From Acidobacteriota bacterium (GTDB lineage Bacteria; Acidobacteriota; Thermoanaerobaculia; Multivoradales; Multivoraceae): a DNA stretch of 64,000 nucleotides. The position numbers and the translations under genes are program-made. The stretch is taken from positions 17 through 64,016 of the forward strand of contig JAYZDP010000152.1 in NCBI GenBank assembly GCA_036337765.1, read 5' to 3'. Of this stretch, positions 12,388 to 50,399 are shown one piece after another; the first letter of the stretch is position 1, and every line of letters begins with the position of its first letter. The notes beneath the pieces were generated by a model. The model was not told where the DNA came from, ran no database searches, and was given only the letters and a program-made list of their open reading frames with translations.

Positions 12388-13812
12388 CGTCCACCCGTCC
12401 CGGTAGCGGTAGTGCAGATGGGCGTTGGCGTCGGGACGGTTCGGGATCGTCATGTTCTCCGCATCCCATGCTAGCGTATCCTCTGGGAACATCAGCGCGA
12501 CGTTGCCGAGCATGGCGATCTCGGTCAACGGGCCACCGTGGCCGAAGTGCGAGCCCGCCACCTTGTAGCCCCTGCAGGCCTGCAGGAAGTCCTCGTGGTG
12601 CTCGAAGTTGTTCGGCATCCCGACGCCACGCTCGTCTTCGACGCGTGAGCGGTCCGCCATGTACTCGTCCATGCGCTCCTCGGGAAGGATGCGCCACTGC
12701 GCAGCGCCGTGGGAGGCGTATGTGATCTTGCCTCGATCGCCGACCACCAGTCCGCCGACCGCACCGCGACCGCCGAGAAGCGGAATCGACACCTCGTCGG
12801 GCCCGAGCTCCTCGGGATGTGGCGGTGCGAAGACGTCGCCGTCGTACCAGTACATGGTCAGAGCCGGGCGCACTCCGCCATTCGCGAGCTTCGCCTCTGG
12901 AAACTCGAAGCGCACCTTGGACGACCGCGGGAACGTATCGCCGTGCTTTTGCGGGTCGTAGCCGTCAGCCACTTCGGCGTGCACCGAACTCGGTGCCCCA
13001 AGCTGCAGGGCGGTGAAGACCGGGTCGACGATATGGCAGACAAAGTCGCCGATCATGCCCGAACCGAAGGCACGGAAGCAGCGCCAGAGTCCGGGGTGGT
13101 ACAGCGGGTGGTACGAACGCTCGGCCGCCGGACCCAGCCACCTGTCCCAGTTCAACGACTTCGGCACCGGATGCTTCTCCTCGAGGCGCGGCAGATCTTC
13201 GATGCGGCTGAAGTTGAACGCCGCCTCGACCACGTGGATCTCGCGCACGGTACCGATCACGCCAGACCAGATGGCTTCGCAGAACTCGTGATTCGAGGCG
13301 TACGAGTGTCCCTGGTTGCCAAGCTGCGTCGCCACGCCGTGGTAGACGGCGGCCTCTTGGAGGCGACGGACTTCATACATGGTGTGCGCCAACGGCTTTT
13401 CGCAGTACACGTGCAAACCATGCTCCATGGCCGCAAGCGAGATCAGGGCATGGGCGTGGTCGGGGGTGGCGACGATCACGGCATCGATTCCCTTTTCCTC
13501 GTCGAGCAGACGGCGGAAGTCGTCGTAGCGCTCGGCCTTCGGAAACATCTCTACGACCGACTTCGGAGCCTCGTTGTCGACGTCGCAGAGAGCCGCGATC
13601 TTGCTGCCCGCCAGGTCAGAGGTGCGCACGTCGAACCGGCCCATCGTTCCGAGCCCGATTCCGGCGACGTAGACCGTATCGCTAGGCGCGGTGTTGCCAG
13701 GGCCTCCGAGCACATGCCGTGGCACGATCGCGGCGGACGCGGCACCCGCCGCGGCGGCCGTGGCTGCGCCCTTCAACAGATCGCGACGGGTAAGGTTCTC
13801 GATCTCTTTCAT
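12382..13812 (-). CDS. Gfo/Idh/MocA-family NAD-dependent oxidoreductase, Tat-exported (GH109-like)
   Basis: Tat signal RRDLLKGAATAAAAGAA. Rossmann GxGxxG (YVAGIGLGTMG). EKP motif (YCEKPLAHT). ATGA overlap with the sulfatase gene. Confidence 0.8.
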   Translation of the reverse strand: MKEIENLTRRDLLKGAATAAAAGAASAAIVPRHVLGGPGNTAPSDTVYVAGIGLGTMGRFDVRTSDLAGSKIAALCDVDNEAPKSVVEMFPKAERYDDFRRLLDEEKGIDAVIVATPDHAHALISLAAMEHGLHVYCEKPLAHTMYEVRRLQEAAVYHGVATQLGNQGHSYASNHEFCEAIWSGVIGTVREIHVVEAAFNFSRIEDLPRLEEKHPVPKSLNWDRWLGPAAERSYHPLYHPGLWRCFRAFGSGMIGDFVCHIVDPVFTALQLGAPSSVHAEVADGYDPQKHGDTFPRSSKVRFEFPEAKLANGGVRPALTMYWYDGDVFAPPHPEELGPDEVSIPLLGGRGAVGGLVVGDRGKITYASHGAAQWRILPEERMDEYMADRSRVEDERGVGMPNNFEHHEDFLQACRGYKVAGSHFGHGGPLTEIAMLGNVALMFPEDTLAWDAENMTIPNRPDANAHLHYRYRDGWTL

Positions 13813-15221
13813 GGGCTCGCTCCTCGTGCGGCGGCCGCCTGTTCACGCTGGCGCATCCATTCGATTCGTCTCTCCTCGATCCACTCACCGGACGTGCGAT
13901 CGAAGAGATCCGGACGGCGGGTCGCCGGAGCAACGTCGTCGGTGTCTTTCTGCCACTCGCCTAACACCGCGCGCAACTCGGCGAGAGTTGCGGCATGGAC
14001 CGGGAGACTGGCGAGATTGTGGAGGGAAAAGGCATCGAACTCTAGATCGTAGAGCTCTTCTTCAGGCCTCGGCGAGAGGAAGGTCGTCGACTGCTCGGGA
14101 GGGAGCTGGCCGCTACGGTGGAGGTGAACCATCGCCCGGTAGGTGATCGAGCGCACCGCGTCGCGGGGTGGGTTGCAGCTCAGGTCGTTGTACTCGTTAC
14201 GAACGTAGAGGTGACGTTTCGTTCGTACCGAACGCGCGCGAGCCGCATAGTCGTGCCAGTTGCGCTCGGCGAAGACGTGCTCACGATGCTCGCGGCGAGG
14301 GCTCTCGAGGATGCCGGCGAAGGAACGACCCTGGTGCGAGTCGAGCGGATCGAGGCCGGCGAGATCGAGGATCGTGGGGGCGATGTCGACTGCGCTGATC
14401 AGACTCGCGGTCGTCGAGCCCGCCTCGGCGACGCCTGGCAGCCGCACGATGAACGGCGTGCGGATGCCGCTGTCGTACAGCGTCGTCTTCGAGCGCGGAA
14501 ACGGCCGGCCGTTGTCGGACAGGAAGAGAACGAACGTGTTCTCCGCGGCACCCTGCTGCTCGAGCTCGGCGAGCACATGGCCCACCGCGCCGTCGAGGCG
14601 CGCGATCTCGTCGTAGTAGAGGCGGAGGTCGGCGCGAGTAGCCGCGTTATCGGGAAGAAACGGCGGCACCACCACATCGTCGTCGCCATGGGGAACGGCA
14701 ATGATCCCCTCCTCGTAGTCGCGGTGCGGATCATTGGCCGCGAACCAGAAGAAGAACGGTTGGTCGCGCGGTCGCTCACGCAACACTCTCGACCATTCCT
14801 CACTGCCTCCCGCACCCCCGCCGACCACGAGATCGAACTTCGGCCGCGTTGCGTCGCCGAGGTGCCACTTGCCGGCGGCTGCCGTGTAGTAGCCGAGGTC
14901 GCGCAACGGCTCGGTCACGATCACCTGCGAGGCGGGCAGCGGGAGGTGCAGCTCCGCCGCGCCCGTCGAGTGCGGGTAGCGGCCCGTAAGGATGCTCGAA
15001 CGGCTCGGGCTGCACGAACTGGTGGTCAGAAACGCCCTATCGAAGCGCATGCCGTCGCGGGCGAGCCGGTCGATATTGGGCGTGCGGATGTGTGGATGCC
15101 CATAGGCCCCGGCGTCGTTCCACGCCATGTCGTCGGCGACGAAGACGATGAAGCTCGGCGGCGCCCCACCCCCAGCGGAGGATGAGGCCACCATCAGCAG
15201 GGCCACGAGTATGGGGCTCAC
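13809..15221 (-). CDS. Sulfatase (formylglycine-dependent)
   Basis: Signal peptide. C-x-P-x-R sulfatase signature CSPSR in TTSSCSPSRSSILTGRYPHSTG. Confidence 0.85.
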   Translation of the reverse strand: MSPILVALLMVASSSAGGGAPPSFIVFVADDMAWNDAGAYGHPHIRTPNIDRLARDGMRFDRAFLTTSSCSPSRSSILTGRYPHSTGAAELHLPLPASQVIVTEPLRDLGYYTAAAGKWHLGDATRPKFDLVVGGGAGGSEEWSRVLRERPRDQPFFFWFAANDPHRDYEEGIIAVPHGDDDVVVPPFLPDNAATRADLRLYYDEIARLDGAVGHVLAELEQQGAAENTFVLFLSDNGRPFPRSKTTLYDSGIRTPFIVRLPGVAEAGSTTASLISAVDIAPTILDLAGLDPLDSHQGRSFAGILESPRREHREHVFAERNWHDYAARARSVRTKRHLYVRNEYNDLSCNPPRDAVRSITYRAMVHLHRSGQLPPEQSTTFLSPRPEEELYDLEFDAFSLHNLASLPVHAATLAELRAVLGEWQKDTDDVAPATRRPDLFDRTSGEWIEERRIEWMRQREQAAAARGASP

Positions 15222-15224
15222 GCT

Positions 15225-17153
15225 CTACTCGGGGTTCACCCAGATCGGCGAAGACCAGGCGCGCTCCTGGAGCGTGGCCTGCACGTCCCGGCGGGGCTCG
15301 ACGCCCTCCTGTAGGGCGTCCCAGGTCGACCAACGGCAGGTCGGGTTCTCGAGCACGCGTACGTAGTAGAAAGCCCTTAGCGACGGGTCGAAATCGGGAT
15401 CGCTCCAGGTCGCCTTAAGCTCGTCGGCGCCCCCACCGGAGGGCTCACAGGTAGCGAGATCGACCGAAGCGCCGTTGTCGGGACAACGGTGGGTGTCTGG
15501 ATCGACGGCCGCACCATCGGAGCAGGCCACGTCGTAGACCCGCTCGTCGGTCGCGCCGTCCGACGACCAGCCCTTGATGATCTGCACCCGGTCCAGGGGG
15601 GCTGCCAACGCATCGCGCAGCGCCCAGACCGCGAAGCTCGGCGTCGCGCCGACGTCGGCCGCATCGAGCTCACCGCCCATGGGCACCGCCTCTGCGTAGG
15701 CGCGGGTCAGGAAGTCGTCGGAGTCGAGATCCGCGGTCTCGAACGCGCCGCCGCCGAAGAAGCGCACGCGGATGCGAGGCCCGGAGGTCGAGAAGGTCTC
15801 CTTGCGACGAAACGCCTGAAAGATGGCCTCGCGGGTGTTCTCCTCTGCCCACACTCCGGCGAGACCCGAGGCACCCCAGGTGTAGTAGTAGGTGTCGCGA
15901 TAGGTTCGGCCCGAGCCGTCCTGAGTGCGGATCGCCGAGTCGGAGCGCTCGGCCGCGGTGTCGAACGACGCGTTCGCGCCACCGCCGGGAACCGAGCCGC
16001 GCAGCTGCGCGGTGGCGTCAAGAATGCCGACCTTGGACCAGTAGGTCTCCTCGTTGTACGAGCCGGCGGCGACGTGAGTGTCGCTCGAACCGATCACGCC
16101 GACCTTGTAGGGGTTTTGCACCCCCCCGTCCTCGATCGCGAGTCCACGGCGGAGCGCGTTGCGCACGTAGCTGCCGGGGGGGTCACTGAGCTGGTAGCTC
16201 GCGACCTTGTACGGCATGATCTCGAACTCGGCCCACTCGTCGTTGGGAGACAGCGCCGGGTGAGTGTCAGAGGTGCCCTTGACCTGGGTGTTCTCGACAA
16301 TCGGCTCGTTGCGCATGCGGGTTTCGGAGTAGGCCTGGTCGATCGCCCCGCCGTCGTAGTACTCGAGTTCGAACATCCGCCCGCCCGAGCCGTTCGAGTT
16401 GTGGGGGATCGCCAACGAGTCGATGCCCCGCTCGCGCCAGGCGTCCATCGCCGCCCACAGATCTTCGGGATTCTGTGAGTCGAGGCGACTGAAGGGGGCT
16501 TCCGGAGCGTCCGAGCCGCGAAAGATCACATTACGGTGCAGGTTGTTGCGCTCACCGCCTGAAGAGGTGTACTCGTAGCCGATGAAGGCGGTGAACGTGC
16601 CGGGATCGTTGTGGCGCTCAGCCGCATCGACGATCTCGGACCAGGCACCCTTGACGATGTCGAGGTCGAAGTGCTCCTCGGTCCCCGCGTCGCCACGCAG
16701 ATACGGGCCCATGCCGACGAAGTTCGCCCGGCGCTCGTCGGCCAGTTCGGCGGACCGCACACCCTCCGCGACGGGATGGTCGTAGGCCCCGGAGTCCGGG
16801 TCGGTCATCGCCGGCAGCATCCCCAGATACATGCCGTGGTCCGCGACGGCCTGAAAGTCCAACGGACGGTCGAGCTTGAGCTCGAAGCCGGCAGGATGCT
16901 GGATGCCCTTTCCCTTCGCGAACTCGTAGGCGTCGTTCGCGTCGGCCTTGGTGCCGAAGATGAAGGCGTCGAAGGAGTAGCGCGTGTGCACGTGCACGTC
17001 GCCGAAGTAGGCGTCGCGCGTCGGATTGGGGGCACTGGCGGCGGAGGGTTCGCTTGCCGACGAGCCGTCGGCGGGCGGAGCATCTTCCGGCGCGCCACAG
17101 CCCAGAGCTAGTGCAAGGCCAAGGCACGCGGCCGCCGAAACGATCGTTCTCAT
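15225..17153 (-). CDS. DUF3604-family lipoprotein with PHP-like HxH metal motif
   Basis: Lipoprotein signal ...ALALGC. YFGDVHVHTRYSFDAF PHP-like motif. Paralog of 37831..39738. Stop lies 4 nt from the sulfatase start. Confidence 0.7.
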   Translation of the reverse strand: MRTIVSAAACLGLALALGCGAPEDAPPADGSSASEPSAASAPNPTRDAYFGDVHVHTRYSFDAFIFGTKADANDAYEFAKGKGIQHPAGFELKLDRPLDFQAVADHGMYLGMLPAMTDPDSGAYDHPVAEGVRSAELADERRANFVGMGPYLRGDAGTEEHFDLDIVKGAWSEIVDAAERHNDPGTFTAFIGYEYTSSGGERNNLHRNVIFRGSDAPEAPFSRLDSQNPEDLWAAMDAWRERGIDSLAIPHNSNGSGGRMFELEYYDGGAIDQAYSETRMRNEPIVENTQVKGTSDTHPALSPNDEWAEFEIMPYKVASYQLSDPPGSYVRNALRRGLAIEDGGVQNPYKVGVIGSSDTHVAAGSYNEETYWSKVGILDATAQLRGSVPGGGANASFDTAAERSDSAIRTQDGSGRTYRDTYYYTWGASGLAGVWAEENTREAIFQAFRRKETFSTSGPRIRVRFFGGGAFETADLDSDDFLTRAYAEAVPMGGELDAADVGATPSFAVWALRDALAAPLDRVQIIKGWSSDGATDERVYDVACSDGAAVDPDTHRCPDNGASVDLATCEPSGGGADELKATWSDPDFDPSLRAFYYVRVLENPTCRWSTWDALQEGVEPRRDVQATLQERAWSSPIWVNPE

Positions 17154-17369: not shown

Positions 17370-18923
17370 ATGACCAAGATCGGCAGGCGCGACTTCATCA
17401 AGAACGTAGGCGTGGCCACCACGACGTTCGCGGTATCCCGTTCACTGCGGGCAGACAGGAACGACACCAACCGACCTAACGTCGTCTTCATCCTCGCCGA
17501 CGACATGGGCTACGGCGACATCACGAGCTTGAACAGCGACTCGCAGATTCCCACGCCGAACATCGACCGCCTGACGAAAGGGGGGCGCTACTTCACCGAC
17601 GCCCACTCCCCATCGGCGCTGTGCACACCCACCCGCTACGGCGTACTGACCGGCCGTTATTGCTTCCGCACCCGCGTCAAGCGCAGTGTGCTGTGGGGCT
17701 ACAGCCGCCACCTGATCGAGCCCGAGCGGACAACGGTCGCCTCGCTACTGAAATCGCAGGGCTACAACACCGCCTGCATTGGCAAGTGGCACCTCGGCAT
17801 GGACATGCCCGCGCCGGGCGGCGGCCGCATCCCGGATCCGGATCACAGGGTCGACCGGCGCGCCTACAAGGGCGCGGTCGACTGGAACGCCACGATCGAC
17901 AACGGTCCTCTCTCGGTAGGCTTTGACACCTACTACGGCATCCCGGCATCGCTCGACATGTACCCCTACATCTGGATCGAGAACGACCGTTTCGTCGGCG
18001 AGTGCACGGCCGAAGACGACCTGCTCTTCATTACCGAACAGACCCGCGGCCAACGCTACGGCGACAACATCGGGCCCGCTCATCCCGACTTCCGAGCCGA
18101 CGAGGTGATGCCCACCATCACTCGCAAGACGGTCTCCACCATCGAAGAGCAGTCTGCGGAGACTCCGTTTTTCGTCTACATGTCCCTGACCGCGCCGCAC
18201 ATCCCGATCGTGCCTTCAGCGCCCTTCCGCGGCCGCAGCGAGATTGGCCCCTACGGCGACTTCTGCATCGAGGTCGACGACGGCGTCGGGCAGGTGCTCG
18301 ACGCGCTGGAGCGCAAGGGGCTCGCCGAGCAAACCCTGGTCGTGTTCACCGCCGACAACGGCTGCGCCCCTTACATCGGTGTAGAGGACATGAACGAGCA
18401 GGGCCACTACCCGTCCTACATCTACCGCGGCTACAAGTCCGACATCTACGAGGGAGGCCACCGCGTTCCCTTCATCGCCCGCTGGCCACAGCGCATTCCG
18501 GCGGCGACGCATTCCGACGAGACCATCTGCCTCACAGATCTACTGGCCACCTGCGCGTCCATCACCGACACCCGCCTCACGCAGAACGCCGGCGAGGACA
18601 GCTACGACATCTTGCCGGCGTTGGTGGGGGGACCGCTGGAGGAGCCGATCCGCGAAGCCACCGTGTCCCAGGCCGGCGATGGCTCCTACTCGATCCGCCA
18701 GGGCCGCTGGAAGCTCGAGCTCACGCCTAGCTCCGGCGGCTACGACCGGATCAGCCCGGACGAGGCACGCAAGAAGGGCCTGCCGGCGATCCAGCTCTAC
18801 GATCTGTCCGCAGACATCGGCGAGCGCACCAACCTCTACGACCGCAACCCGGAGGTCGTCAACAGCCTGAAACGGCTGCTCGAGAAGTACAGGCGAGAGG
18901 GACGAAGCGCCCCGCACGCCTAG
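17370..18923 (+). CDS. Sulfatase, Tat-exported
   Basis: Tat motif GRRDFIKNVGVATTTFAVS. Sulfatase signature CTPTR in SPSALCTPTRYGVLTGRY. Confidence 0.9.
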   Translation: MTKIGRRDFIKNVGVATTTFAVSRSLRADRNDTNRPNVVFILADDMGYGDITSLNSDSQIPTPNIDRLTKGGRYFTDAHSPSALCTPTRYGVLTGRYCFRTRVKRSVLWGYSRHLIEPERTTVASLLKSQGYNTACIGKWHLGMDMPAPGGGRIPDPDHRVDRRAYKGAVDWNATIDNGPLSVGFDTYYGIPASLDMYPYIWIENDRFVGECTAEDDLLFITEQTRGQRYGDNIGPAHPDFRADEVMPTITRKTVSTIEEQSAETPFFVYMSLTAPHIPIVPSAPFRGRSEIGPYGDFCIEVDDGVGQVLDALERKGLAEQTLVVFTADNGCAPYIGVEDMNEQGHYPSYIYRGYKSDIYEGGHRVPFIARWPQRIPAATHSDETICLTDLLATCASITDTRLTQNAGEDSYDILPALVGGPLEEPIREATVSQAGDGSYSIRQGRWKLELTPSSGGYDRISPDEARKKGLPAIQLYDLSADIGERTNLYDRNPEVVNSLKRLLEKYRREGRSAPHA

Positions 18924-20613: not shown

Positions 20614-21639
20614 TCAGCGCCCCTGCTGCTGGCGCCACTCCTGCTCGAGGAAGCGCGCTCCTCGCAGGCTGTTGCCGACCGAGTAGTTGCCCTCGTGGCA
20701 GGCGAACTCGTACAACCGCTTGTCCGTCCGCGGCCACGGTAGCGAGCCACTGTACGGCGCGGTGTGCTCGGGATCGTTGACCGTGAATTCGTAGAGCAGG
20801 TTGTCCTCGTCGAGGTGAGTGAAGCGCTCCACGACGTGCAGACCCTCGCGCGATTCGTGCCAGGAGGTCATGAAGTGGGTCGTATCCACCACCAGCGTGT
20901 CGCCTTCGAACCAACCGATCGAGTCGCCAGCCATCGATCGTGCACCGGCGTGGGCGTGCTCCGAATCGAGACGGATGACACGAGCCCAGTGCATCCACTC
21001 GACCAGCAGAACGACGTGGGTCTCGGTCTGGGTGATGGTCTTGACGTTGTTGTACGCCCTGGGACCGATCGGGATGGTGGCCGACTGGTGGAAGACACAG
21101 CGATTGAGCGGGGTCAGCGACTCGGGGCCGTCGTAGGGGTCGTCGCCGTTCTCGAGCCACCAGGCCGTGCCGGTGTTCTCGTAGCCGAACGCGGGCAGAT
21201 CGGCGCGGCGCTTCTCGCCGGCCTCGGTCAGCGTCGGCAGCCGACCGTTCGGCGGGTCGGTGAGGATCGAGGTGCGGTACTTGCCGTCGATGGCGAAAGT
21301 CGTTGTACCGCGATCGAGCCAGAACCGATTGTAGGCACCGACGCCCCCGAACTCCTCGTCACCTCGCGCCGCGGGAGCTGAGCGGTTCGGGTCGCTGGCC
21401 TCGTTCGCACGTGCCGCAGCGGCCGCGTCCGCTTGCTCGATCTCCCGCGCCTCGCGCCCATCCATGTACAGAGTGTCGCCGTACTTCGGATCGCGCTCGT
21501 AGGGCGTCAGGACCGAGATGTCGTACGTGCCAGAGAAGTCCGGCTGACCACTGGGAGTTCGGGGAATGTCATCGGCACTCACGACCGACAGGGCCGAAGA
21601 AACCAAGACGGCTACCGTCAGAACAAGAGTCTTGCTCAT
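20614..21639 (-). CDS. Secreted conserved hypothetical protein, C-terminal CHEGNY motif (paralog of 27709..28821)
   Basis: Signal peptide. Conserved IPRT(P/A)SG(Q/R)PDFSG near the N-terminus. LYEFACHEGNYSVGN near the C-terminus. Lies 25 bp downstream of the PHM-like gene on the same strand. Confidence 0.6.
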   Translation of the reverse strand: MSKTLVLTVAVLVSSALSVVSADDIPRTPSGQPDFSGTYDISVLTPYERDPKYGDTLYMDGREAREIEQADAAAAARANEASDPNRSAPAARGDEEFGGVGAYNRFWLDRGTTTFAIDGKYRTSILTDPPNGRLPTLTEAGEKRRADLPAFGYENTGTAWWLENGDDPYDGPESLTPLNRCVFHQSATIPIGPRAYNNVKTITQTETHVVLLVEWMHWARVIRLDSEHAHAGARSMAGDSIGWFEGDTLVVDTTHFMTSWHESREGLHVVERFTHLDEDNLLYEFTVNDPEHTAPYSGSLPWPRTDKRLYEFACHEGNYSVGNSLRGARFLEQEWRQQQGR

Positions 21640-21664: not shown

Positions 21665-23221
21665 CTATAGCCCCGCGCTGGGACTGACGCTGCCGTCGTA
21701 AGGCAAGCCCACGATCGGAATCGCCTGCGGCTCTGCGGTATCCGACCCGATCGTCAGGGTGCCCGTGAATCGTCCGTCGGGCTGAACCGCCCCTTCGATC
21801 ACGGTGGTCGTCGCACTGGCGTCGGGAGTCGGGAACTGAGTGACGATCTTCAGCTCGGCGCCGTTCCACGCAAAGTCATCCAATGATGTCGAGAAAGCCC
21901 CTGTTCCCTGGCCGAGGTACAGCCACCCCTCGCCCTGACGGGGAGCATGGAACGCCAACGACAGGAACCCGTCCACGAGGTAGGAATCCTCGGCCGGATG
22001 AAGCGCCAGCCGAGATAGCAGCATCTGCCGGGCTGGCGTCGGCTTGAAGCGAACCGAGTCCTTCTTCACCGCCTCGACGAAGCCGACGAACATCTCGTTG
22101 AAGGTGTCGCCGCGGTAGATGATCTCCTTGGTGGGGTCCGGATTGTCAGCATTGCCCGCGGAGTTGTCCCACACCGCCGTGACGTCCAGCCGGCTGCCGG
22201 CGGGAATGTCGATGGGCTGGGTCGGGTAGTACAGCCACTGCCAGTTGAAGTTGTAGTTCGGCACGTCGAGCAGCACTTCCTTCTGGCCATCAGGATAGGT
22301 GAGCTCGTAGCTCATCGCCTTGCCGCGCAGGTGCATGTGCGGACTGAAAGCCAGAATCTGCATGTCTTCGTCGAACAGCATGTGGGCCGTCTCGGGATGG
22401 TGATCGGCGCCGGGTGGAATCCGCAGGCCGGTATTCGCTACCGCCAGGGTCACCACTTCCCTTTGCAGCTCACCGTCACCGAAGTAGACGCCGATCTGAG
22501 ACACGTCGCTGGTCGCCTCACCCATCGGGTGGAAGTGCATGTCCAGCTGCAGCGTGGTCTTTTCGCCCAAGACCCGGCCCATCCCGTCGGGAAAGACGTA
22601 GGGCGGCATCCCGGCCGTCCACACCGCAAGCACGCCAGTCGGTCCCCCGCCATAGGTGGCGAGGAAGTGGTGCGCCACCCGCCGGTCCCCGGGGAGAAAC
22701 TCGATCGCTCTCACCCAGCGGTCTCCGTCGAGCGCGATCTCATGGCGCTGGACCGTGAAGATGTCGTCGCCATCCGCGGGCACGTCGACACGGTCAAGGG
22801 CGATCACGAGGTCCGGCTCGCCGAGCGTCCAACCGTCGGCGAAGGTCGGGACTTCGGGGAGATCGGAAGGGTTGCCTTCCGCGGCACCCTGTTTCGCCCA
22901 GTTGACGATGGTCGCGATCTCGGCATCCGAGAGCGAGATGTCGTTGGACCACTCGTGCCGATCGGACTCACCGCTGAACGGCGGCATGTCACGGCTCTGC
23001 ACTTGCTTGGCGATCGAGCGGGCCCATGGCCGCACTTCTTGGTAAGACAGTAGGGACATGGGCGCGACTTCGCCGGGCCGATGACACTGGGCACAGTTCT
23101 CGAAAAATATCGGAGCCACGTCGCGGCTGAAGGTCGGCGCGTCGACGGCGGCGGCGGCCGGCAAGGCGAGCAGGATCGAGAGGGCGGCGAGAGGGGTCAC
23201 GACGAGGATCTTCGACATCAT
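21665..23221 (-). CDS. Cytochrome c (PSCyt-like) domain fused to a PHM/DBH-like two-copper monooxygenase domain
   Basis: Signal peptide. FSRDVAPIFFENCAQCHRPG (heme CxxCH). CuH-site-like VAHHFLATYGG and LDMHFHP. CuM-site-like HMHLRGK and NEM. Confidence 0.65.
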   Translation of the reverse strand: MMSKILVVTPLAALSILLALPAAAAVDAPTFSRDVAPIFFENCAQCHRPGEVAPMSLLSYQEVRPWARSIAKQVQSRDMPPFSGESDRHEWSNDISLSDAEIATIVNWAKQGAAEGNPSDLPEVPTFADGWTLGEPDLVIALDRVDVPADGDDIFTVQRHEIALDGDRWVRAIEFLPGDRRVAHHFLATYGGGPTGVLAVWTAGMPPYVFPDGMGRVLGEKTTLQLDMHFHPMGEATSDVSQIGVYFGDGELQREVVTLAVANTGLRIPPGADHHPETAHMLFDEDMQILAFSPHMHLRGKAMSYELTYPDGQKEVLLDVPNYNFNWQWLYYPTQPIDIPAGSRLDVTAVWDNSAGNADNPDPTKEIIYRGDTFNEMFVGFVEAVKKDSVRFKPTPARQMLLSRLALHPAEDSYLVDGFLSLAFHAPRQGEGWLYLGQGTGAFSTSLDDFAWNGAELKIVTQFPTPDASATTTVIEGAVQPDGRFTGTLTIGSDTAEPQAIPIVGLPYDGSVSPSAGL

Positions 23222-23314
23222 CGGCTCATTCTAGCCTGTCATCCGGCGACCTGTCGTCAGGCTGCTGCAAGCGCGCCGTATACTGCTGCAGTCCAACGAG
23301 CCAGGAGATCCGTC

Positions 23315-24592
23315 ATGCGCGCATCCACAACAATGGCCATCGCCATCGCCATCGCCATCGCTGCAGTCTTTCTCGTCACCGGCGCGGCACTGGCCGCGGC
23401 CAAAGACGTCGTCGCGGAGCCCACCTTCTACCGCGACGTGGCGCCCATCCTCCAGCAAAGCTGCCAGAACTGCCACCGCGATGGCGGCGCCAACCTCGGC
23501 GGTCAAGTCGCGCCCATGGCACTCGTCTCCTATGCCGACACCCGCCCGTGGGCCAAGGCGATCGCCAAACAGGTCGAGGCACGCACGATGCCTCCGTGGC
23601 ACGCCTCGCACGCGCAGAACGGGATCTTTCACAACCAGCGCACCCTCAGCGAGGGCCAGATCGCCACCGTAGTGGCTTGGGCCCGCGGCGGAGCGCCGGC
23701 CGGAAACGTCGCCGACGCGCCGACTCCGAAGGCGTGGCCACCGACCGTTGACGGCTGGATCACCGGCGAGCCGGATCTCGAGATCGCCATCGAGCGCACC
23801 TTCATCGAGGACGACGTGCAAGACATCTACATGGACCTGGTGACCGAGATCACCCCCGACATGCTCCCCGAGCCGCGCTGGGTCAAGTCGATCGAGTTCC
23901 AGCCGGGAAGCTCGATCGTGCACCACATCGTCGCCCCACCCCTCGGCGGTCTCGGACCGGGGCTGCAGCCGTACCTGTACGCCGAGAACTTCGGCACCCT
24001 CCTCGCGCCTGGTGACCGGGTGCGCTGGTCGATGCACTACCACAAGGAGCCCGGCCCCGGCACCGGAGTGTGGGATCAGTCGCGCGCCAACATCCAGTTC
24101 TATCCCCCGGGAGTGGTGCCCGATCATCCCGTGGTCTGGGCCCACGCGTCGCGCTACGACTTCGTGCTGCCGCCGGGCGACGAGCACGTCCAGTACACCC
24201 AACGGCTACCGATCGAGCGCGACGCGCTACTGCTAGCGCTGAACCCGCACATGCATCTGCGCGGCAAGGCCGCGCGCTACACCGCGCACTACCCCGACGG
24301 TACGACCGAAGTCCTGCTCGACGTGCCGCGCTACGACTTCAACTGGCAGACCACGTACGAGTATCCGCTCGGCGAGCCCAAGAACCTGCCGGCCGGCACC
24401 GAGATCGAGTTCATGGCCGCCTGGGACAACTCGGCCGACAACCCGTACAACCCGAACCCGGCGGAAGAAGTGCGCTTTGGTAAGCCAACCACGGCCGAGA
24501 TGATGGTCGGTTGGGTCATCCTCTCCGACGCAGAGCCCGGTGTCACCGTGCCAGGGGGGGTCTTGACCAGCCGGACGCGCGTGGCCGACTGA
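23315..24592 (+). CDS. Cytochrome c (PSCyt-like)–PHM/DBH-like copper monooxygenase fusion, divergent paralog
   Basis: FYRDVAPILQQSCQNCHRDG. VHHIVAPPLGG. SMHYHKEPG. HMHLRGKA. AEMM. Same architecture as 21665..23221. Confidence 0.65.
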   Translation: MRASTTMAIAIAIAIAAVFLVTGAALAAAKDVVAEPTFYRDVAPILQQSCQNCHRDGGANLGGQVAPMALVSYADTRPWAKAIAKQVEARTMPPWHASHAQNGIFHNQRTLSEGQIATVVAWARGGAPAGNVADAPTPKAWPPTVDGWITGEPDLEIAIERTFIEDDVQDIYMDLVTEITPDMLPEPRWVKSIEFQPGSSIVHHIVAPPLGGLGPGLQPYLYAENFGTLLAPGDRVRWSMHYHKEPGPGTGVWDQSRANIQFYPPGVVPDHPVVWAHASRYDFVLPPGDEHVQYTQRLPIERDALLLALNPHMHLRGKAARYTAHYPDGTTEVLLDVPRYDFNWQTTYEYPLGEPKNLPAGTEIEFMAAWDNSADNPYNPNPAEEVRFGKPTTAEMMVGWVILSDAEPGVTVPGGVLTSRTRVAD

Positions 24593-24607: not shown

Positions 24608-25624
24608 TCAGGGAGCGTCGATGACCCACATGTCGGCCTGCACGCTGCTGCCGGTCGGCGAGCCACCGGCGACATAGAGCTTGCCGCCGAGGATCGCCGC
24701 CGCCGGCGAGGAAAGCGGCATCGGCAGAGTCGCTACGTGCCGCCACTCTCCACCGGGCGCAAGCGTGAGGATGCCAGGGTCGATCTTCTTCGACTCGCCT
24801 GCGGCAGTGGTGTGGCCACCGACCATCCAGATCTTTCCGCCGTGCACGAAGGTGCCGCCCTCGGCGTGCGAGTGGCCCTTGGGAAGAGACGGGCCGGCGG
24901 ACCAGGAGTCGGTCGCCGGGTCGTAGATGTCGACACGGGCCTGATCGAGCTGCTTCGAGTCGTGATGCAACTGACCGCCGATGGCGTAGATCTTTCCATT
25001 AAAGACGACGCACGAGAACTGGTTGCGCGGGCCCGGCAGCGGCGCCGCGTCGGTCCACTCGGCAGAACCGCCGGCCCAATCGTCTAAGTCCAGCACCCAA
25101 TGGTCAGCGGCATTGGTGTCGCGATCGGCCTTCACGCCGCCCATGTAGTGGAGCTCGCGGCCGACGATCGCAAGACCGCCGCCGCCGCGCGTTTCAGGCA
25201 GCAGCGGCGCCGCAGTGAAGCGGTCCTGGTCGACGTCGTAGCTCCATACCTCGGCGATGGTGTGTCCTTTGTAGCCGTCCTTGAAGCCGCCGGCGTACCA
25301 GACCGTGCGTCCGTCGAGCACGAGGTTCATGTGCGTGATGGCACTCGGCAGATCCTGGATCCGCGTCCAGCTGCCGTCAGCAGGGTCGAAGAAGTGCGAG
25401 ATCCGACTCGAGCGCACCCCCTCGGTGTAACCGCCGAGCAGGTAGAGCTTGGCGTCGAGCACGAAGGTGCCCGCCTCCCACTTCTCGACCGGCATGTCCG
25501 GCAGCTGGACCCAGTCGCTCTGGGCGGAAACCGTGGATGTGAGCACGAAAGCGAGAGTCGCAATCGCGGCCCACGTGACGCGGCACGACATCCGACTTCC
25601 ACGCTGGAACCTGTTGGCCTTCAT
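24608..25624 (-). CDS. Kelch-repeat beta-propeller protein (NanM/mutarotase-like), secreted
   Basis: Six Kelch blades (KLYLLGGY, RTVWYAGGF, ELHYMGGV, KIYAIGGQ, KIWMVGGH, KLYVAGGS). Start set at MKANRF, which has a GGAGG RBS and a signal peptide, rather than the track start at 25834. Confidence 0.75.
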   Translation of the reverse strand: MKANRFQRGSRMSCRVTWAAIATLAFVLTSTVSAQSDWVQLPDMPVEKWEAGTFVLDAKLYLLGGYTEGVRSSRISHFFDPADGSWTRIQDLPSAITHMNLVLDGRTVWYAGGFKDGYKGHTIAEVWSYDVDQDRFTAAPLLPETRGGGGLAIVGRELHYMGGVKADRDTNAADHWVLDLDDWAGGSAEWTDAAPLPGPRNQFSCVVFNGKIYAIGGQLHHDSKQLDQARVDIYDPATDSWSAGPSLPKGHSHAEGGTFVHGGKIWMVGGHTTAAGESKKIDPGILTLAPGGEWRHVATLPMPLSSPAAAILGGKLYVAGGSPTGSSVQADMWVIDAP

Positions 25625-25693
25625 GCGTTCCTCCGCAACGAGTCTCGACGTTGTTCGAGAAGTGAAGTGTACTGTCGCTACCATTGCGAGCCG

Positions 25694-26428
25694 ATGACTG
25701 TCCGGGTCGCCATGTGGTCGGGGCCACGCAATATCTCGACCGCGATGATGCGCTCCTGGGGCTCCAGGGCGGACACCGTGGTCGTGGACGAGCCGTTCTA
25801 TGCGCACTACCTGCAGCAGACCGGCCTCGAGCATCCGGGCGCCGAAGAGATCATCGATCGAGGTCAGACCGATTGGCGAGACGTAGTCGCATCACTCTTC
25901 GAGGATCTTTCCGAGGGAAAGTCGGTGCAGTTTCAGAAGCAGATGACGCTACATCTCCTCGAGAGCATGGACCGCGGCTGGATCCACAACGTCGTGAACT
26001 GCTTCCTTATCCGCGAGCCCCGTGACGTGATTACTTCGTACGCCGCTAAGCGCCCGCATCTCGATCTTTCTGACCTCGGCTTCCTCCAGCAAGCCGAGCT
26101 TCACGCTTGGGTCCTCGAGCACACCGGACAAGACCCACCCATCGTCGACGCCCGCGACGTGCAGAACCACCCGGAGGCCGTCCTGGCGCGCCTGTGCGAG
26201 CGCATCGGCACCGCCTTCGACCCCGCCATGCTCTCGTGGCCGCCTGGCCGCCGCGACACCGACGGTATCTGGGCTCCCCACTGGTACACGTCGGTCGAGG
26301 CCTCTACGGGCTTCAACCCCTATCGCGAAAAGGGCCAGGACGTGCCCGCGGCCCTCGAGGGCATCTACAAGGTGGGCCTCGAGACATATCGCGAGCTCTA
26401 CGAGCAGAGAATCCGACCGGACGACTAA
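25694..26428 (+). CDS. Sulfotransferase-like P-loop family protein (BCAT-like-associated N-domain type)
   Basis: N-terminal MWSGPRNISTAMMRSW motif. About 245 aa. Immediately followed by a class IV aminotransferase. Confidence 0.45.
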   Translation: MTVRVAMWSGPRNISTAMMRSWGSRADTVVVDEPFYAHYLQQTGLEHPGAEEIIDRGQTDWRDVVASLFEDLSEGKSVQFQKQMTLHLLESMDRGWIHNVVNCFLIREPRDVITSYAAKRPHLDLSDLGFLQQAELHAWVLEHTGQDPPIVDARDVQNHPEAVLARLCERIGTAFDPAMLSWPPGRRDTDGIWAPHWYTSVEASTGFNPYREKGQDVPAALEGIYKVGLETYRELYEQRIRPDD

Positions 26429-27708: not shown

Positions 27709-28821
27709 CTAGTCTCCGCCCGTCGGGGCCGCCTCGCCCTCGAGCAGACGCGCGCCACGCATGATGTTTCCGAGCGCGTAGTTGCCCTCGTGGCACGCGT
27801 ACTCGTACACGCGATCGCCTGACGCCGGCCACACATATTCGCCGCTCCAGGGCGCGGTCCAGGTGCCCGGGTCGCTGACCGTGAACGAGTAGCGAATCGT
27901 CGAGGCATCCTCGAAGCTGAAGCGTTCGGTGACACGCATATCGTCGGAGGCTGCCTCGAATCCCGACAGACCGAAGCCGTCGAAGTGGCTCTTGAGGTTG
28001 GCGGTCTCGACCACCAAGGTGTCGCCCTCCCAGTGGCCGACCGAGTCGCCGAGCCACCTCTTGATCTCGCCGGGGTTGTGCTCGCCATCGATGCGGATGA
28101 TGCGCGCGTCGTGGGCCATCTCGATCAGGATCATCAGGTAGTCGTCGGTCTGTACGACGGTCTTCATACTGTTGTAAAGCGTCGGCAGCATCGGCGGCCC
28201 GGCGCTCGAGCCGAAGGCGAGCAAACAGCGCTCGGGCAACGGCCGCTGCTCCATGTCGTCATAAGGACCGGAGTCGCGATCCAGCCACCACGCGGTGCCG
28301 GTGTTCTGGTGTAGCGCGATTGCCAGCTTCGAGGCCTTCGCCGTGCCGTGTGGAGTCATCGGCGGGTACTGGCCATTGGGCGGATCGGTCATGATCGAGG
28401 TGCGCCACTTGCCGTCGATCTTGAAGGCACCCTCACCGGGGTCCATGTAGAAGGCGTTGTAGCCGCCGCTGCCGCCCGAGGCGACCTCGAGACCGGGGTC
28501 GAAGATCGGCGCACCGCCGACCGGAGGAGCGTCGCGATCGGGATCGCTGGGCCGTGCGTCGGCGGCGTAGATCTCGGCCTTGCGAGTGGCGATCGCGGCC
28601 GCCTCCTCGTCGCTAAGGGTCAGGCGGTCGCCAAACTGGGCTGGCCGGGTGAGCGGTGTCAGGGTAGCAGCGTTGTAGTTGCCGCTGAAGTCGGGGCGAC
28701 CGCTCGCGGTGCGTGGAATCTCCGAATCGCCCGCGGCGGCGAACGAGAGGCCTGGAAGCAACAGGGTCACGGCCAGGCCGGTGACCCACCGCTGAGCATG
28801 GCGAAACGATCCTCTACACAT
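27709..28821 (-). CDS. Secreted conserved hypothetical protein, CHEGNY-motif family (paralog of 20614..21639)
   Basis: Signal peptide. IPRTASGRPDFSG. YEYACHEGNYALGN. Confidence 0.6.
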   Translation of the reverse strand: MCRGSFRHAQRWVTGLAVTLLLPGLSFAAAGDSEIPRTASGRPDFSGNYNAATLTPLTRPAQFGDRLTLSDEEAAAIATRKAEIYAADARPSDPDRDAPPVGGAPIFDPGLEVASGGSGGYNAFYMDPGEGAFKIDGKWRTSIMTDPPNGQYPPMTPHGTAKASKLAIALHQNTGTAWWLDRDSGPYDDMEQRPLPERCLLAFGSSAGPPMLPTLYNSMKTVVQTDDYLMILIEMAHDARIIRIDGEHNPGEIKRWLGDSVGHWEGDTLVVETANLKSHFDGFGLSGFEAASDDMRVTERFSFEDASTIRYSFTVSDPGTWTAPWSGEYVWPASGDRVYEYACHEGNYALGNIMRGARLLEGEAAPTGGD

Positions 28822-28925: not shown

Positions 28926-30725
28926 ATGTCTCACCTGCAAAACAGCATCCTCGCCGTCACTCTACTGGCCGGCGTGGCTCTCGCTCCGGCACTTGGCGCC
29001 GACGGACCGCCTCTCGCCCTCACCCCGGCCGAGTACAACAACACCGTCGCCGATCTACTCGGCTTCCCCCGCGACGGTACCCAGTGGCCGGAGCGTTCGG
29101 CACTGGCGGACACGCTCAGTCCGCGTCGTAAGGCGAGCAAGGGCGTGTTCGCCCCCTCCCCACCGCCCGCCGTGTGGCCCTGGCGCTTCCCCGTCGAGCC
29201 GGGTGCGAACGGTTTCCAGGGCATCGACCAGGGTCAAGACCCGTCGTCGTACCAAGTCGAAGAGCTTCACCTGGCCGCCATGCATTTCGCCTCGTTCGTG
29301 CTCAGTTCGCCGAGCTTCTTCTCCTGCGAGGGCTGGGAGTCGATGGCACCGAGTGAGCAGGCGTCGTGCGCCGAGGCGAGTCTCGCGCGCTTTGCGCGCC
29401 GCGCATGGCGCCGGCCGCTCAGCGAGACCGAGCTCGCCAGGATGGCTGCGTTCTGGCAGCGTAACCAGCTGGAGAGCGACCTCGATCAGGCGGTCGCGAT
29501 GACCGCCGCGGGCATACTGCAGGCGCCGGCCTTCCACTTCCGGCTGCCGGCCGGAGCGAAGCCCTCGGTCTGGGATCTCGCCAACCGGCTGTCTTACTTC
29601 CTATGGGACTCGATGCCCGACAAGGCGCTGCTCACAGCGGCGGAGACAGGAGAGCTCGCGACCCGTGCCGGCATCGAAGCTCAGGCCCGGCGGATGCTCG
29701 ACGATCCGAAGGCACGCGACGCCGTGATCAAGTTCCACCACCGCTGGCTCGAGACCGACAAGACCCTACTGGTGGCGCCGGCCCGTCGCGCCTTCGGCTC
29801 GCGATTCGGTATCGCCCCGCAGATCAAGACTGCGTCCGACGACGACCTCGAGTGGCCGGCGATCATGGGTGCCGTTCGCCACTCTATGAAGCTCGAGACT
29901 GAGCTCTTCGTCGAACACACTGTTTTCGAAGGCGCCGGTACGTTGGAGGCGCTACTGACCCACAACCGTGGCTACATGTCCGAGGCCACGGCACCGATCT
30001 ATGGCGACGGCGCGCGCCGTATCGAGGGCGGCCAGACGGTTACGCGACCGGTCGACATCATCGTGGCGTCGATGGCCAAAGAGGTCGAGCTCACCCTCTA
30101 CCCGGCCGAGTTCCCAGCCCACCAGCGGGCGGGGGTGCTAACACTCCCGTCCGTCCTCGCGATCGGCGCCTACGCGGTGCAGCCCGGGCCCATTCTGCGC
30201 GGTGTACGGGTGCTCGAGCGCCTGGCCTGCATGGAGCTGGGGGCACCGGTCGAGGGCGCCGAGGCGGCGCTGCCGCCCGACACCCTCACGGCCGAGAGCA
30301 CCAACCGCGAACGTACGGCAACCGCCACCAGCCCGCCGGTGTGCCGGTCGTGCCACCGGAAGATCAATCCGCCGGGCTTCGCCTTCGAGCACTACGACGC
30401 CATCGGCTCCTGGCGAGCCGAGGACAACGGTCAGCCGGTAGACGCCAGCGGCACCCTGACCCTTGCCGGGGGCGAGACCCTCACCTTCACCGACGGCATC
30501 GACCTCGCCCACCAGCTGGCGCGCAGCGAGCGCGTGCACGACTGCTATGCCCTACACTGGACTCGTGTCGCACTGGGCCGCCAGCTCTCGCACTCCGCCC
30601 CCGAGCTGGGGCCGATCCAGGCAGCCTTCCGCGCTGACGACTCGATCCGTGGGCTGCTTGTAACGATCGCCACCAGCGATGTTTTCCGTCAAGGCCCCGC
30701 TAGCGTAGGAGCGCCAGTACGATGA
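28926..30725 (+). CDS. DUF1592-family protein lacking the N-terminal cytochrome c domain
   Basis: Signal peptide. DUF1592-type conserved regions (RLSYFLWDSMPD, ARDAVIKFHHRWLE). No N-terminal CxxCH. Confidence 0.8.
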   Translation: MSHLQNSILAVTLLAGVALAPALGADGPPLALTPAEYNNTVADLLGFPRDGTQWPERSALADTLSPRRKASKGVFAPSPPPAVWPWRFPVEPGANGFQGIDQGQDPSSYQVEELHLAAMHFASFVLSSPSFFSCEGWESMAPSEQASCAEASLARFARRAWRRPLSETELARMAAFWQRNQLESDLDQAVAMTAAGILQAPAFHFRLPAGAKPSVWDLANRLSYFLWDSMPDKALLTAAETGELATRAGIEAQARRMLDDPKARDAVIKFHHRWLETDKTLLVAPARRAFGSRFGIAPQIKTASDDDLEWPAIMGAVRHSMKLETELFVEHTVFEGAGTLEALLTHNRGYMSEATAPIYGDGARRIEGGQTVTRPVDIIVASMAKEVELTLYPAEFPAHQRAGVLTLPSVLAIGAYAVQPGPILRGVRVLERLACMELGAPVEGAEAALPPDTLTAESTNRERTATATSPPVCRSCHRKINPPGFAFEHYDAIGSWRAEDNGQPVDASGTLTLAGGETLTFTDGIDLAHQLARSERVHDCYALHWTRVALGRQLSHSAPELGPIQAAFRADDSIRGLLVTIATSDVFRQGPASVGAPVR

Positions 30726-32113
30726 TCTCGCGACGACAGCTCCTGCAGCTCGGCGGCCTGACCGCGCTCGGCGTCGGCTTTCCGCGCGGTGTTCGCGCGA
30801 CGAGCGATCCGATCCGCCGCCTGATCCTCGTCAGCCACTGTCACGGCTGGCCCTACGAGACCTGGAAGATGCGCCCAGAGGGCCGCTCTGTGGCCGAGCC
30901 CTGGTCGATCGATCTGGGGCCGCTCGCCGAAACCGAGCTCAGCCGCCCGCTCGCGCCGCTGTACGCGCACCGCCGCCGCGTCATCGCTCTGGACGGGCTC
31001 TCCCTGGCGACGGCCGAGCTCGACATCGGTGGCAACCGCCACGATCGCGGCTGGATCCATGCGTGGACCGGCAACAACGCCGACTTCGCCGCCAGCGATA
31101 CGCGGGCGACGTCGGCATCGCTCGATCAGCTGGTCGCGGCGCGAATCGCGCGATCGGATCGCATGCCCTCGCTCGAGCTGTCGGTGGACTCGGCGCTCGA
31201 AGCGGGCCGACCGATCAGCTACAGCGCCAGCGGCATCCGACTGCCCGCCGAAGGCACGCCGCTGAGGGCGTGGGAGCGGGTCTTCGGCCCGGCATCCTCG
31301 GGCGACGCAGTCGGCAAGCGCCGCCGGTCGACGCTCGACTTCGCCTACCGTGAGTACCAGCAGCTCGCACCGAGACTCGATGCCGCCGGGCGCGAACGGG
31401 TCGAGTCACACTTCGATCTGGTGGAGCGGCTCGGCGGACGTCTGGAGGGGTTGGCCAACCTCGCCTGCGACGCCCCTCCTCGTCCACCTGTGGCCTTCGA
31501 GCAATACGATCTGCAGTTCGACGCCTTCACCGACATCATCGCGGCGGCCTTCGCCTGCGACATCACCCGCGTGGTGACGCTGTCGCTCGGCGAGATGCCG
31601 ACGGCCGAGTTCGGCGCCGAGCACATCAGCGACAAGGTCCACAAGGGTATCGCCCACTACATCTACGACGACCCGGTGAAGTATGGCGCCATGACCGACT
31701 ACGCCGGCACCCACGCCGCCCAAGTGGCACGGCTCGTGTCGACGCTCGACAACGTCTCGGACCCCGCCGGAGGCTCGGTGATGGACCACACGCTCATCGT
31801 CTGGGGCTCCGAGCTCGGCGACGGCTGGCACGGCTACAGCCGCTACTGTCCGGTGCTGATCGGCGGCGACTGGGCCTTCCGGACCGGCCGCTACATGTAC
31901 TGGCCGCAGGACACGCCAGCCGAGATGCGAGTCCCGACCCAGGTGCTCCCGAGCGGCACGACCCGGCTCGCCGGAGTGCCCCACCAGCGCATGCTGGTGA
32001 GCGTCGCCCGCGCCATGGGAATCGATGTCGACCACGTGGGTCTCGAGCACGTGCGCGGCCAGCGCGGCGACTTCATCGACCTTCACGGCCCGATGCCGGC
32101 CCTCGTCGCCTAA
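30722..32113 (+). CDS. DUF1552-family protein (Tat-type N-terminus)
   Basis: ISRRQLLQLGGLTALGVG Tat-like signal. ATGA overlap with the preceding DUF1592 gene. Confidence 0.85.
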   Translation: MISRRQLLQLGGLTALGVGFPRGVRATSDPIRRLILVSHCHGWPYETWKMRPEGRSVAEPWSIDLGPLAETELSRPLAPLYAHRRRVIALDGLSLATAELDIGGNRHDRGWIHAWTGNNADFAASDTRATSASLDQLVAARIARSDRMPSLELSVDSALEAGRPISYSASGIRLPAEGTPLRAWERVFGPASSGDAVGKRRRSTLDFAYREYQQLAPRLDAAGRERVESHFDLVERLGGRLEGLANLACDAPPRPPVAFEQYDLQFDAFTDIIAAAFACDITRVVTLSLGEMPTAEFGAEHISDKVHKGIAHYIYDDPVKYGAMTDYAGTHAAQVARLVSTLDNVSDPAGGSVMDHTLIVWGSELGDGWHGYSRYCPVLIGGDWAFRTGRYMYWPQDTPAEMRVPTQVLPSGTTRLAGVPHQRMLVSVARAMGIDVDHVGLEHVRGQRGDFIDLHGPMPALVA

Positions 32114-50391: not shown

Positions 50392-50399
50392 GAGCACCT

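Follow-up and report, generated by a model that had tools for sequence, protein, structure and literature searches.

Introduction

Peptidylglycine alpha-hydroxylating monooxygenase (PHM), DBH and tyramine beta-monooxygenase (TBM) have so far been studied as eukaryotic enzymes driven by ascorbate. In PHM, two coppers sit 11 Å apart across a cleft, with H107, H108 and H172 as ligands of CuH and H242, H244 and M314 as ligands of CuM (PMC9064607). PAM homologs have been presented in animals, green algae and ciliated protists, with no mention of bacteria (PMC9004410). Here we describe two genes, A and B, that stand head to head in a 64,000-nucleotide stretch (the window, G+C ~65%) of a marine, metagenome-assembled Acidobacteriota genome (assembly GCA_036337765.1, contig JAYZDP010000152.1). 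Each encodes a c-type cytochrome domain fused to a core that resembles PHM and DBH. We consider it reasonably likely from their sequences that both proteins act as metalloenzymes, periplasmic or secreted, in which heme c would feed a two-copper core that hydroxylates a substrate other than a peptidylglycine.

The two proteins share with PHM (PDB entries 1PHM, 1OPM and 1SDW) a CuH-type HH pair plus a third histidine and a CuM-type HxH plus methionine at aligned positions, as well as the local motif pairs WARNAPP/WTAGMPP and HTHHLGK/HMHLRGK. They differ from PHM in being bacterial and exported to the periplasm, in carrying an N-terminal heme c domain, in having no PAL lyase domain and in scoring below Pfam thresholds, and the equivalents of PHM R240, N316 and Y318 are not conserved. 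DBH carries a DOMON domain at its N-terminus. Unlike DBH and TBM (4ZEL), A and B have there a class-I-like c-type cytochrome, to which heme would be attached covalently, and lack a dimerisation domain, and A bears an avidin-like barrel at its C-terminus.

Heme c is known to feed copper in other enzymes, namely the cytochrome-c-fused copper nitrite reductases and Cellvibrio Cbp2D, whose X183 heme domain reduces lytic polysaccharide monooxygenases. The copper domains of these systems (a cupredoxin trimer and a histidine brace, respectively) are unrelated to those of A and B, and the likeness is functional only.

Genes A and B are divergent paralogs

A and B are paralogs, with 41% identity over 385 residues (E 1e-82), which is far beyond chance. 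The initial annotation of this DNA, made from the sequence alone, had described them as a divergent paralog pair with signal peptides on both products, and both statements hold: a hydrophobic Sec-type signal sequence can be read at the start of each protein. Gene A encodes, in order, a signal peptide, a heme c domain, a PHM-like CuH domain, a PHM-like CuM domain and a C-terminal beta-barrel. The features of the pair are as follows.

21665..23221, minus strand: gene A (VYE73 locus; NCBI name 'cytochrome c'), 518 aa
23315..24592, plus strand: gene B (VYE73_11535; NCBI name 'hypothetical protein'), 425 aa, with an A-like architecture minus the tail
23222..23314, no strand: intergenic spacer between the divergent genes, 93 bp
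23147..23221, minus strand: Sec-type signal peptide of A (MMSKILVVTPLAALSILLALPAAAA), residues 1-25, read from the sequence; pLDDT below 50 in the model
22847..23146, minus strand: predicted monoheme c-type cytochrome domain of A, residues 26-125, with CxxCH at 23081-23095 and DMPP at 22979-22990
22442..22846, minus strand: N-terminal catalytic beta-sandwich of A with the CuH-type site, residues 126-260, placed by hidden Markov model (HMM) and hhalign alignments and by conservation
22664-22675 and 22529-22540, minus strand: CuH-type residues of A, H184-H185 (in AHHF) and H229 with the clade-specific H231 (in MHFH), respectively
22046..22441, minus strand: C-terminal catalytic beta-sandwich of A with the CuM-type site, residues 261-392, placed by alignments to PHM and a Cu2_monoox_C match
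22319-22339 and 22088-22099, minus strand: CuM-type residues of A, H295 and H297 (in HMHLRGK) and M377 (in NEMF), respectively
21668..22045, minus strand: C-terminal up-and-down beta-barrel of A with 8-9 strands, avidin/calycin type, residues 393-518
23462-23476, 23918-23929, 24032-24043, 24248-24268 and 24494-24505, plus strand: motifs of B, namely CxxCH, HH, HYH, HMHLRGK and EM, respectively

Every motif quoted in the initial annotation was located in the two proteins. In A these are CAQCH (residues 43-47), AHHF (183-186), MHFH (228-231), HMHLRGK (295-301) and NEMF (375-378); in B they are CQNCH (50-54), VHHI (202-205), MHYH (240-243), HMHLRGK (312-318) and AEMM (394-397). B has no counterpart of the avidin/calycin-type barrel of A.

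The start codon of gene B is the ATG at 23315, which has GGAG 8 nt upstream and marks the beginning of the signal peptide; translation from there yields 425 aa identical to NCBI MEE2777376.1. A longer open reading frame from 23081, where the frame is open, was rejected because the ribosome-binding site, the signal peptide and the NCBI protein all fit 23315. This start bears out the gene coordinates and the 93-bp divergent spacing given previously. Within the spacer there is one sigma-70-like match, on the minus strand (ACGACA-18 nt-TAGAAT, 23257-23228), which is a consensus match only.

The catalytic core has a PHM/DBH-like fold with conserved ligand sets

A profile built from 46 relatives and compared with PDB sequences retrieves rat PHM first (E 1.2e-5), followed by human DBH (E 7e-4), and an hhalign comparison of the family with PHM (E 3.5e-5) places the candidate ligands on the PHM ligands. 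The AlphaFold2 model of A (predicted local distance difference test score, pLDDT, 86.2; predicted template modelling score, pTM, 0.84) gave the same answer: the best 31 Foldseek matches are all PHM or DBH, with E-values down to 2e-12. The core consists of two beta-sandwich domains, as is characteristic of the PHM/DBH family, at an identity between A and PHM of 17-19%. Profile, hhalign and ligand conservation thus agree with the central proposal of the initial annotation, that heme c is fused to a PHM/DBH-like two-copper core, and the structure comparison it had called for came out in its favor.

Searches with single sequences were less informative: phmmer with A against PDB sequences gave chance matches only, and an NCBIfam search returned nothing useful. 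Among the 46 relatives, eight match PF03712 at E<0.01, and one relative (P0107) passes the curated Pfam threshold for Cu2_monoox_C (41 bits vs 23).

For the assignment of ligands we used a PHM sequence that is identical to 4e4z_A/1sdw_A at 296/296 positions. In both the HMM and the hhalign alignments, H184/H185 of A align with H107/H108 of PHM and H229 with H172 (CuH), and H295/H297 align with H242/H244 (CuM). E376-M377 align with E313-M314 (CuM) in an extended hhalign run. The equivalent residues of B are H203/H204 and H241 for CuH and H312/H314 and M396 for CuM. These residues are kept wherever the sequence is present in the 46 relatives and also in distant subfamilies at ~35-37% identity, so that the two ligand sets named in the initial annotation both align with PHM and are conserved across the family. 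We infer that the two sites bind copper as in PHM.

The CuH strand of A and B carries a second histidine in an HxH pattern (A H231, B H243). It is invariant in the A/B clade only; more distant subfamilies have T, Q or V at this position and read 'HY', as in PHM. This restriction to one clade argues for H229 as the likely ligand, and H231/H243 could be an extra ligand or a clade-specific electron-transfer residue.

Conservation of this kind also bears on the idea that A and B are not enzymes at all, and that a periplasmic electron carrier or a copper-binding or copper-handling protein has simply kept the PHM scaffold. That idea draws on the fact that no activity or substrate is on record, on database names that go no further than 'cytochrome c' or 'hypothetical', and on the gene neighborhoods of the nearest A orthologs, which are not conserved. 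It sits poorly with the persistence of both three-ligand sites down to ~35% identity, including the weak methionine ligand, which is catalytically essential in PHM (PMC9064607). Further invariant motifs, HxHxRGK, NWQ and DNSxxNxxNP, line the C-terminal domain in the pattern expected from purifying selection on a catalytic cleft. Of all the explanations discussed here, we give a non-enzymatic role the least credence.

The heme c domain

In the model, the segment of A from residue 26 to 125 folds into a domain of three helices. The CxxCH motif (C43-H47 in A, C50-H54 in B) is conserved in relatives, and M55 and M79 of A, the latter within an MPP motif, are invariant and are candidate sixth ligands of the heme. 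Cytochrome_CBB3 is matched by 34 of the 46 relatives; B matches this family (E 1.2e-4) and Cytochrom_C (E 3e-3). Covalent heme attachment requires export. Both proteins combine CxxCH with an export signal, as expected of class I-type c cytochromes, and by its sequence this part of A, together with the signal peptide, reads as a normal exported monoheme cytochrome c module. The domain had initially been called planctomycete-type, a label that we drop: the PSCyt1 and PSCyt2 models of Pfam match neither A nor B at E<=1, and the best match is a sub-threshold one to Cytochrome_CBB3.

A large and unrecognised bacterial family

A HMMER profile scan of 1.84 billion cluster representatives identified 22,509 family representatives at E<=1e-3, 14,986 at E<=1e-10 and 5,550 at E<=1e-30; A has thousands of homologs. 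Species-representative genomes contain at least 589 stretches that code for a relative. Among the matches listed, these are mostly from Acidobacteriota (Thermoanaerobaculia, Vicinamibacteria, Blastocatellia and Bryobacterales), and other carriers belong to Planctomycetota, Nitrospirales and Hydrogenedentales. Cultured carriers include Anatilimnocola sp. NA78 (L075) and Bryobacterales bacterium F-183 (L064).

In public databases these proteins go by no name more specific than 'cytochrome c', 'mono/diheme cytochrome c family protein' or 'hypothetical protein', and the literature searched holds no account of a bacterial cytochrome c-PHM-like or redoxin-PHM-like protein and no experimental study of one. 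The architecture is common but unrecognised rather than rare. When the fusion was first noted in this DNA it was considered unusual and poorly described; the family counts contradict the first half of that description, and the bare names and silent literature agree with the second.

Several relatives elaborate on the architecture. P0107, P0110 and P0117 contain two complete modules in one chain. An N-terminal extension is present in ~50 of the best 150 representatives, and in seven of the eight that were scanned it is an AhpC/TSA redoxin domain. Other additions are a C-terminal esterase, CBM48 with a BlaR1 M56 anchor, or EF-hands. Proteins P0241, P0306, P0316, P0323, P0261, P0282, P0360 and P0384 exemplify these redoxin-bearing and C-terminally extended forms. 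Proteins of the redoxin(AhpC/TSA)-cytochrome c-Cu2_monoox_C type and double-module proteins (for example P0306, P0316, P0241 and P0107) are homologous to A and B, with E-values that reach 1e-160 and below, and some redoxin-fused or double-module relatives pass the PF03712 threshold. A and B lack what these relatives add, whether AhpC/TSA, a second module or a C-terminal esterase, CBM48 or EF-hand region, and represent the minimal form, to which A adds its barrel tail.

Genomic context of the pair and its relatives

We surveyed the neighborhoods of 84 related loci for family members and other genes within 8 kb. Each of the 12 A-clade loci has just one family member in that range. In a Ca. Multivoradales genome, the orthologs of A (L006, 67% identity) and B (L073, 58.5%) lie 2.5 Mb apart on the same contig. 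A conserved divergent A/B pair was rejected on these grounds. We likewise rejected a conserved neighborhood of A orthologs, since the neighbors at L001, L002 and L003/L004 are unrelated, save for a CHEGNY-motif gene at L002. The neighborhood of A and B is not kept in relatives, and their divergent pairing is therefore a local arrangement; the co-regulation that the initial annotation thought probable draws no support from a conserved adjacency.

Multiple copies do recur elsewhere: 14 of the 84 loci hold two to four family members. A conserved, operon-like Blastocatellia-type cassette, found at L038, L041, L051 (6066-11456), L056 and L078 and in part at L040 and L061, comprises two distinct tandem paralogs and a small secreted DUF1579 protein. 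The first paralogs of the cassettes are 69-82% identical to one another and the second 73-86%, with 41-48% identity between first and second.

A pyrroloquinoline quinone (PQQ) dehydrogenase gene (PF01011, E 9e-184) lies directly upstream of or inside cassettes at L040, L041, L051, L056, L061 and L078, being directly upstream on the same strand at L040, L051 and L061, and is present in four of the five cassette loci. This is also the commonest recurring neighbor, seen at 13 of the 84 loci, a frequency that carries little weight, since such genes abound in these genomes. PQQ dehydrogenases normally pass electrons to c-type cytochromes, and so the PQQ linkage is the best clue to the electron donor. 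Three such genes occur in the window, each recognized by tblastn comparison with the cassette dehydrogenase.

50340-52361, plus strand: PQQ-dependent dehydrogenase-like gene, 46% identity to the cassette dehydrogenase
34575-36566, minus strand: PQQ-dependent dehydrogenase-like gene, 44% identity
40649-42412, minus strand: PQQ-dependent dehydrogenase-like gene, 24% identity

The same dehydrogenases, together with the redoxin extensions, fit another account of the family, in which the cofactors are as proposed and the protein acts as an oxidase or reductase rather than a monooxygenase, with CuM spending heme electrons on O2, H2O2 or a nitrogen oxide. Such a protein might serve, by analogy with the cytochrome-c-fused copper nitrite reductases, as a periplasmic electron sink for dehydrogenases or as a detoxifier. 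The dehydrogenases of the cassettes need an electron acceptor, and the AhpC/TSA domain that stands upstream of the module in seven of the eight scanned extended relatives belongs to the peroxiredoxin family. PHM structures have been solved with nitrite, azide, CO and O2 bound, according to their entry titles, and CO and O2 bind PHM at the M site (PMC9064607). We nevertheless consider oxidase or reductase chemistry unlikely. The whole family retains a full PHM-type His2Met site and the cleft between the two domains, and PHM couples oxygen reduction fully to substrate hydroxylation (PMC9064607). The expansion of paralogs, with two to four copies at 14 loci, suits diversification of substrates better than a single small-molecule reaction, and Pfam comparison finds no redoxin domain in A or B.

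Downstream of each gene of the pair lies a secreted or repeat protein, as follows.

20614..21639, minus strand: CHEGNY-motif secreted protein (VYE73_11525), 341 aa, 25 nt past the stop of A, with GGAGG 8 nt upstream
24608-25834, minus strand: Kelch-repeat beta-propeller protein, converging on the 3' end of gene B with a 15-bp gap

The 25-bp gap between A and the CHEGNY gene had been noted before and is borne out by the coordinates, and the CHEGNY gene is probably co-transcribed with A. Its product matches no Pfam or NCBIfam family; homologs make up at least 4,288 clusters, every one hypothetical and some from marine Gammaproteobacteria. A second copy, 44% identical, is located at 27709..28821. 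In the survey, a CHEGNY homolog occurs within 8 kb at six of the 84 loci (L002, L009, L010-L012 and L082). All but L082 or one other of these belong to the A clade, five in total, and the orientation varies. L006, L015, L053 and L073, among others, seem to have no CHEGNY gene adjoining the paralog although their genomes carry one. The earlier suggestion that this protein is a partner or substrate of A is thus not sustained by the co-occurrence survey it had proposed: the association is weak and clade-limited, compatible with a partner role without demonstrating one. The Kelch protein was rejected as a partner of B, as no homolog exists at any of the 84 loci.

Other genes of the window have affinities of their own. 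A gene at 28926-30725 (plus strand) encodes PSD5, PSD4, PSCyt3 and PSD2 domains (DUF1595/1592/1588/1585) and is the first of a planctomycete-type pair; its stop overlaps the start of the second gene (30722-32113, plus strand), which encodes a DUF1552 (HXXSHH) protein. Sulfatase genes at 13809-15221 (minus strand) and 17370-18923 (plus strand) flank a DUF3604 gene (15225-17153, minus strand, E 3e-216), and a GFO/IDH/MocA oxidoreductase gene is located at 12382-13812; together these look like a degradative-enzyme cluster.

Proposed electron transfer and substrate

In the scheme that we favor, A and B would be exported by the Sec pathway and then receive heme covalently at CxxCH. A periplasmic donor, for instance a soluble cytochrome c or a PQQ dehydrogenase, would give the heme single electrons, which would pass to CuH (H184, H185 and H229 in A). 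CuH would in turn reduce the catalytic CuM (H295, H297 and M377) on the facing domain, and CuM would activate O2 for hydroxylation of a C-H bond of the bound substrate. The fused heme would thus take the place of ascorbate, the reductant of the animal enzymes, and ascorbate seems unlikely as the reductant of A and B.

Several results weigh against this proposal. The hhalign probability is only 60-72%, and the profile of the C-terminal catalytic domain by itself found no PHM in the PDB, which is why the methionine equivalence rests on the extended hhalign run. A and B fall below the Pfam gathering threshold for every family they match: A scores 17.1 bits against a threshold of 23 for Cu2_monoox_C (PF03712; E 3.8e-3, residues 277-354) and 12.7 bits against 30 for Cu2_monooxygen (PF01082), B matches cytochrome families but no copper-monooxygenase family, and the best match, Cytochrome_CBB3, scores 19.6 bits in A and 22.7 bits in B against 27. 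The three PQQ dehydrogenase genes of the window lie 10-28 kb from the A/B pair, and the redoxin extensions of relatives could signal peroxide or thiol chemistry instead. Residues that contact the substrate in PHM are also replaced. At the positions of N316 and Y318, which we take to be substrate-binding residues of PHM, A has V379 and F381 (F/W in the family). In place of PHM R240, the salt-bridge partner of the peptide carboxylate (PMC9064607), A has S293 and B has N310 (S/N in the family). For the core itself, single-sequence searches are weak and the family-level evidence is clear, and we regard the interpretation as a PHM/DBH-like core as supported on that basis.

The same replacements bear on what the substrate may be. 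With the carboxylate-binding residues of PHM replaced, the substrate is presumably something other than a C-terminal glycine peptide bound in the manner of PHM; the proteins appear to keep a PHM-like cofactor layout yet not to hydroxylate peptidylglycines as PHM does. A genuine peptidylglycine alpha-hydroxylase of bacteria, serving peptide amidation or breakdown, would accord with PHM being the nearest solved structure by every measure and with the secreted peptidases and serine hydrolases that often adjoin relatives: trypsin-like and S9 peptidases at L001, an S9/S15-like hydrolase and esterases at L073, and beta-lactamase-family genes at nine loci. Given the loss of the salt-bridge residue, the changes at the N316 and Y318 positions and an identity to PHM of 17-19% only, we regard this as very improbable.

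Calycin-type barrels, in the tail of A, in the DUF1579 proteins of the cassettes and possibly in the CHEGNY protein, hint at a small and possibly hydrophobic ligand. A BLASTP comparison of the A tail with DUF1579 and CHEGNY proteins found no similarity.

Implications for the PHM/DBH superfamily

A and B are ordinary members of their family, and the value of these observations rests with the family rather than with the locus. We tentatively suggest that it may constitute an unstudied and very large prokaryotic branch of PHM/DBH enzymes that is wired to periplasmic electrons (from PQQ dehydrogenases or cytochromes to heme c, CuH and CuM), often as paired paralogous modules that are tandem, fused or, as here, divergent, with hydroxylation aided by calycin barrels. 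The amidating and catecholamine enzymes of animals and algae could have evolved from such a branch.

The transfer of the electron from CuH to CuM across the 11 Å cleft and the gating of oxygen activation are long-standing problems of PHM (PMC9064607). If the proposed scheme is true, a heme-fed bacterial version would be self-sufficient, with a built-in spectroscopic donor, and would ease studies of this crossing. Acidobacteriota and Planctomycetota are abundant in soils and oceans. The family would represent a new class of periplasmic C-H hydroxylases in these phyla, and would provide a function for proteins in the tens of thousands whose present label is 'cytochrome c' or 'hypothetical'.

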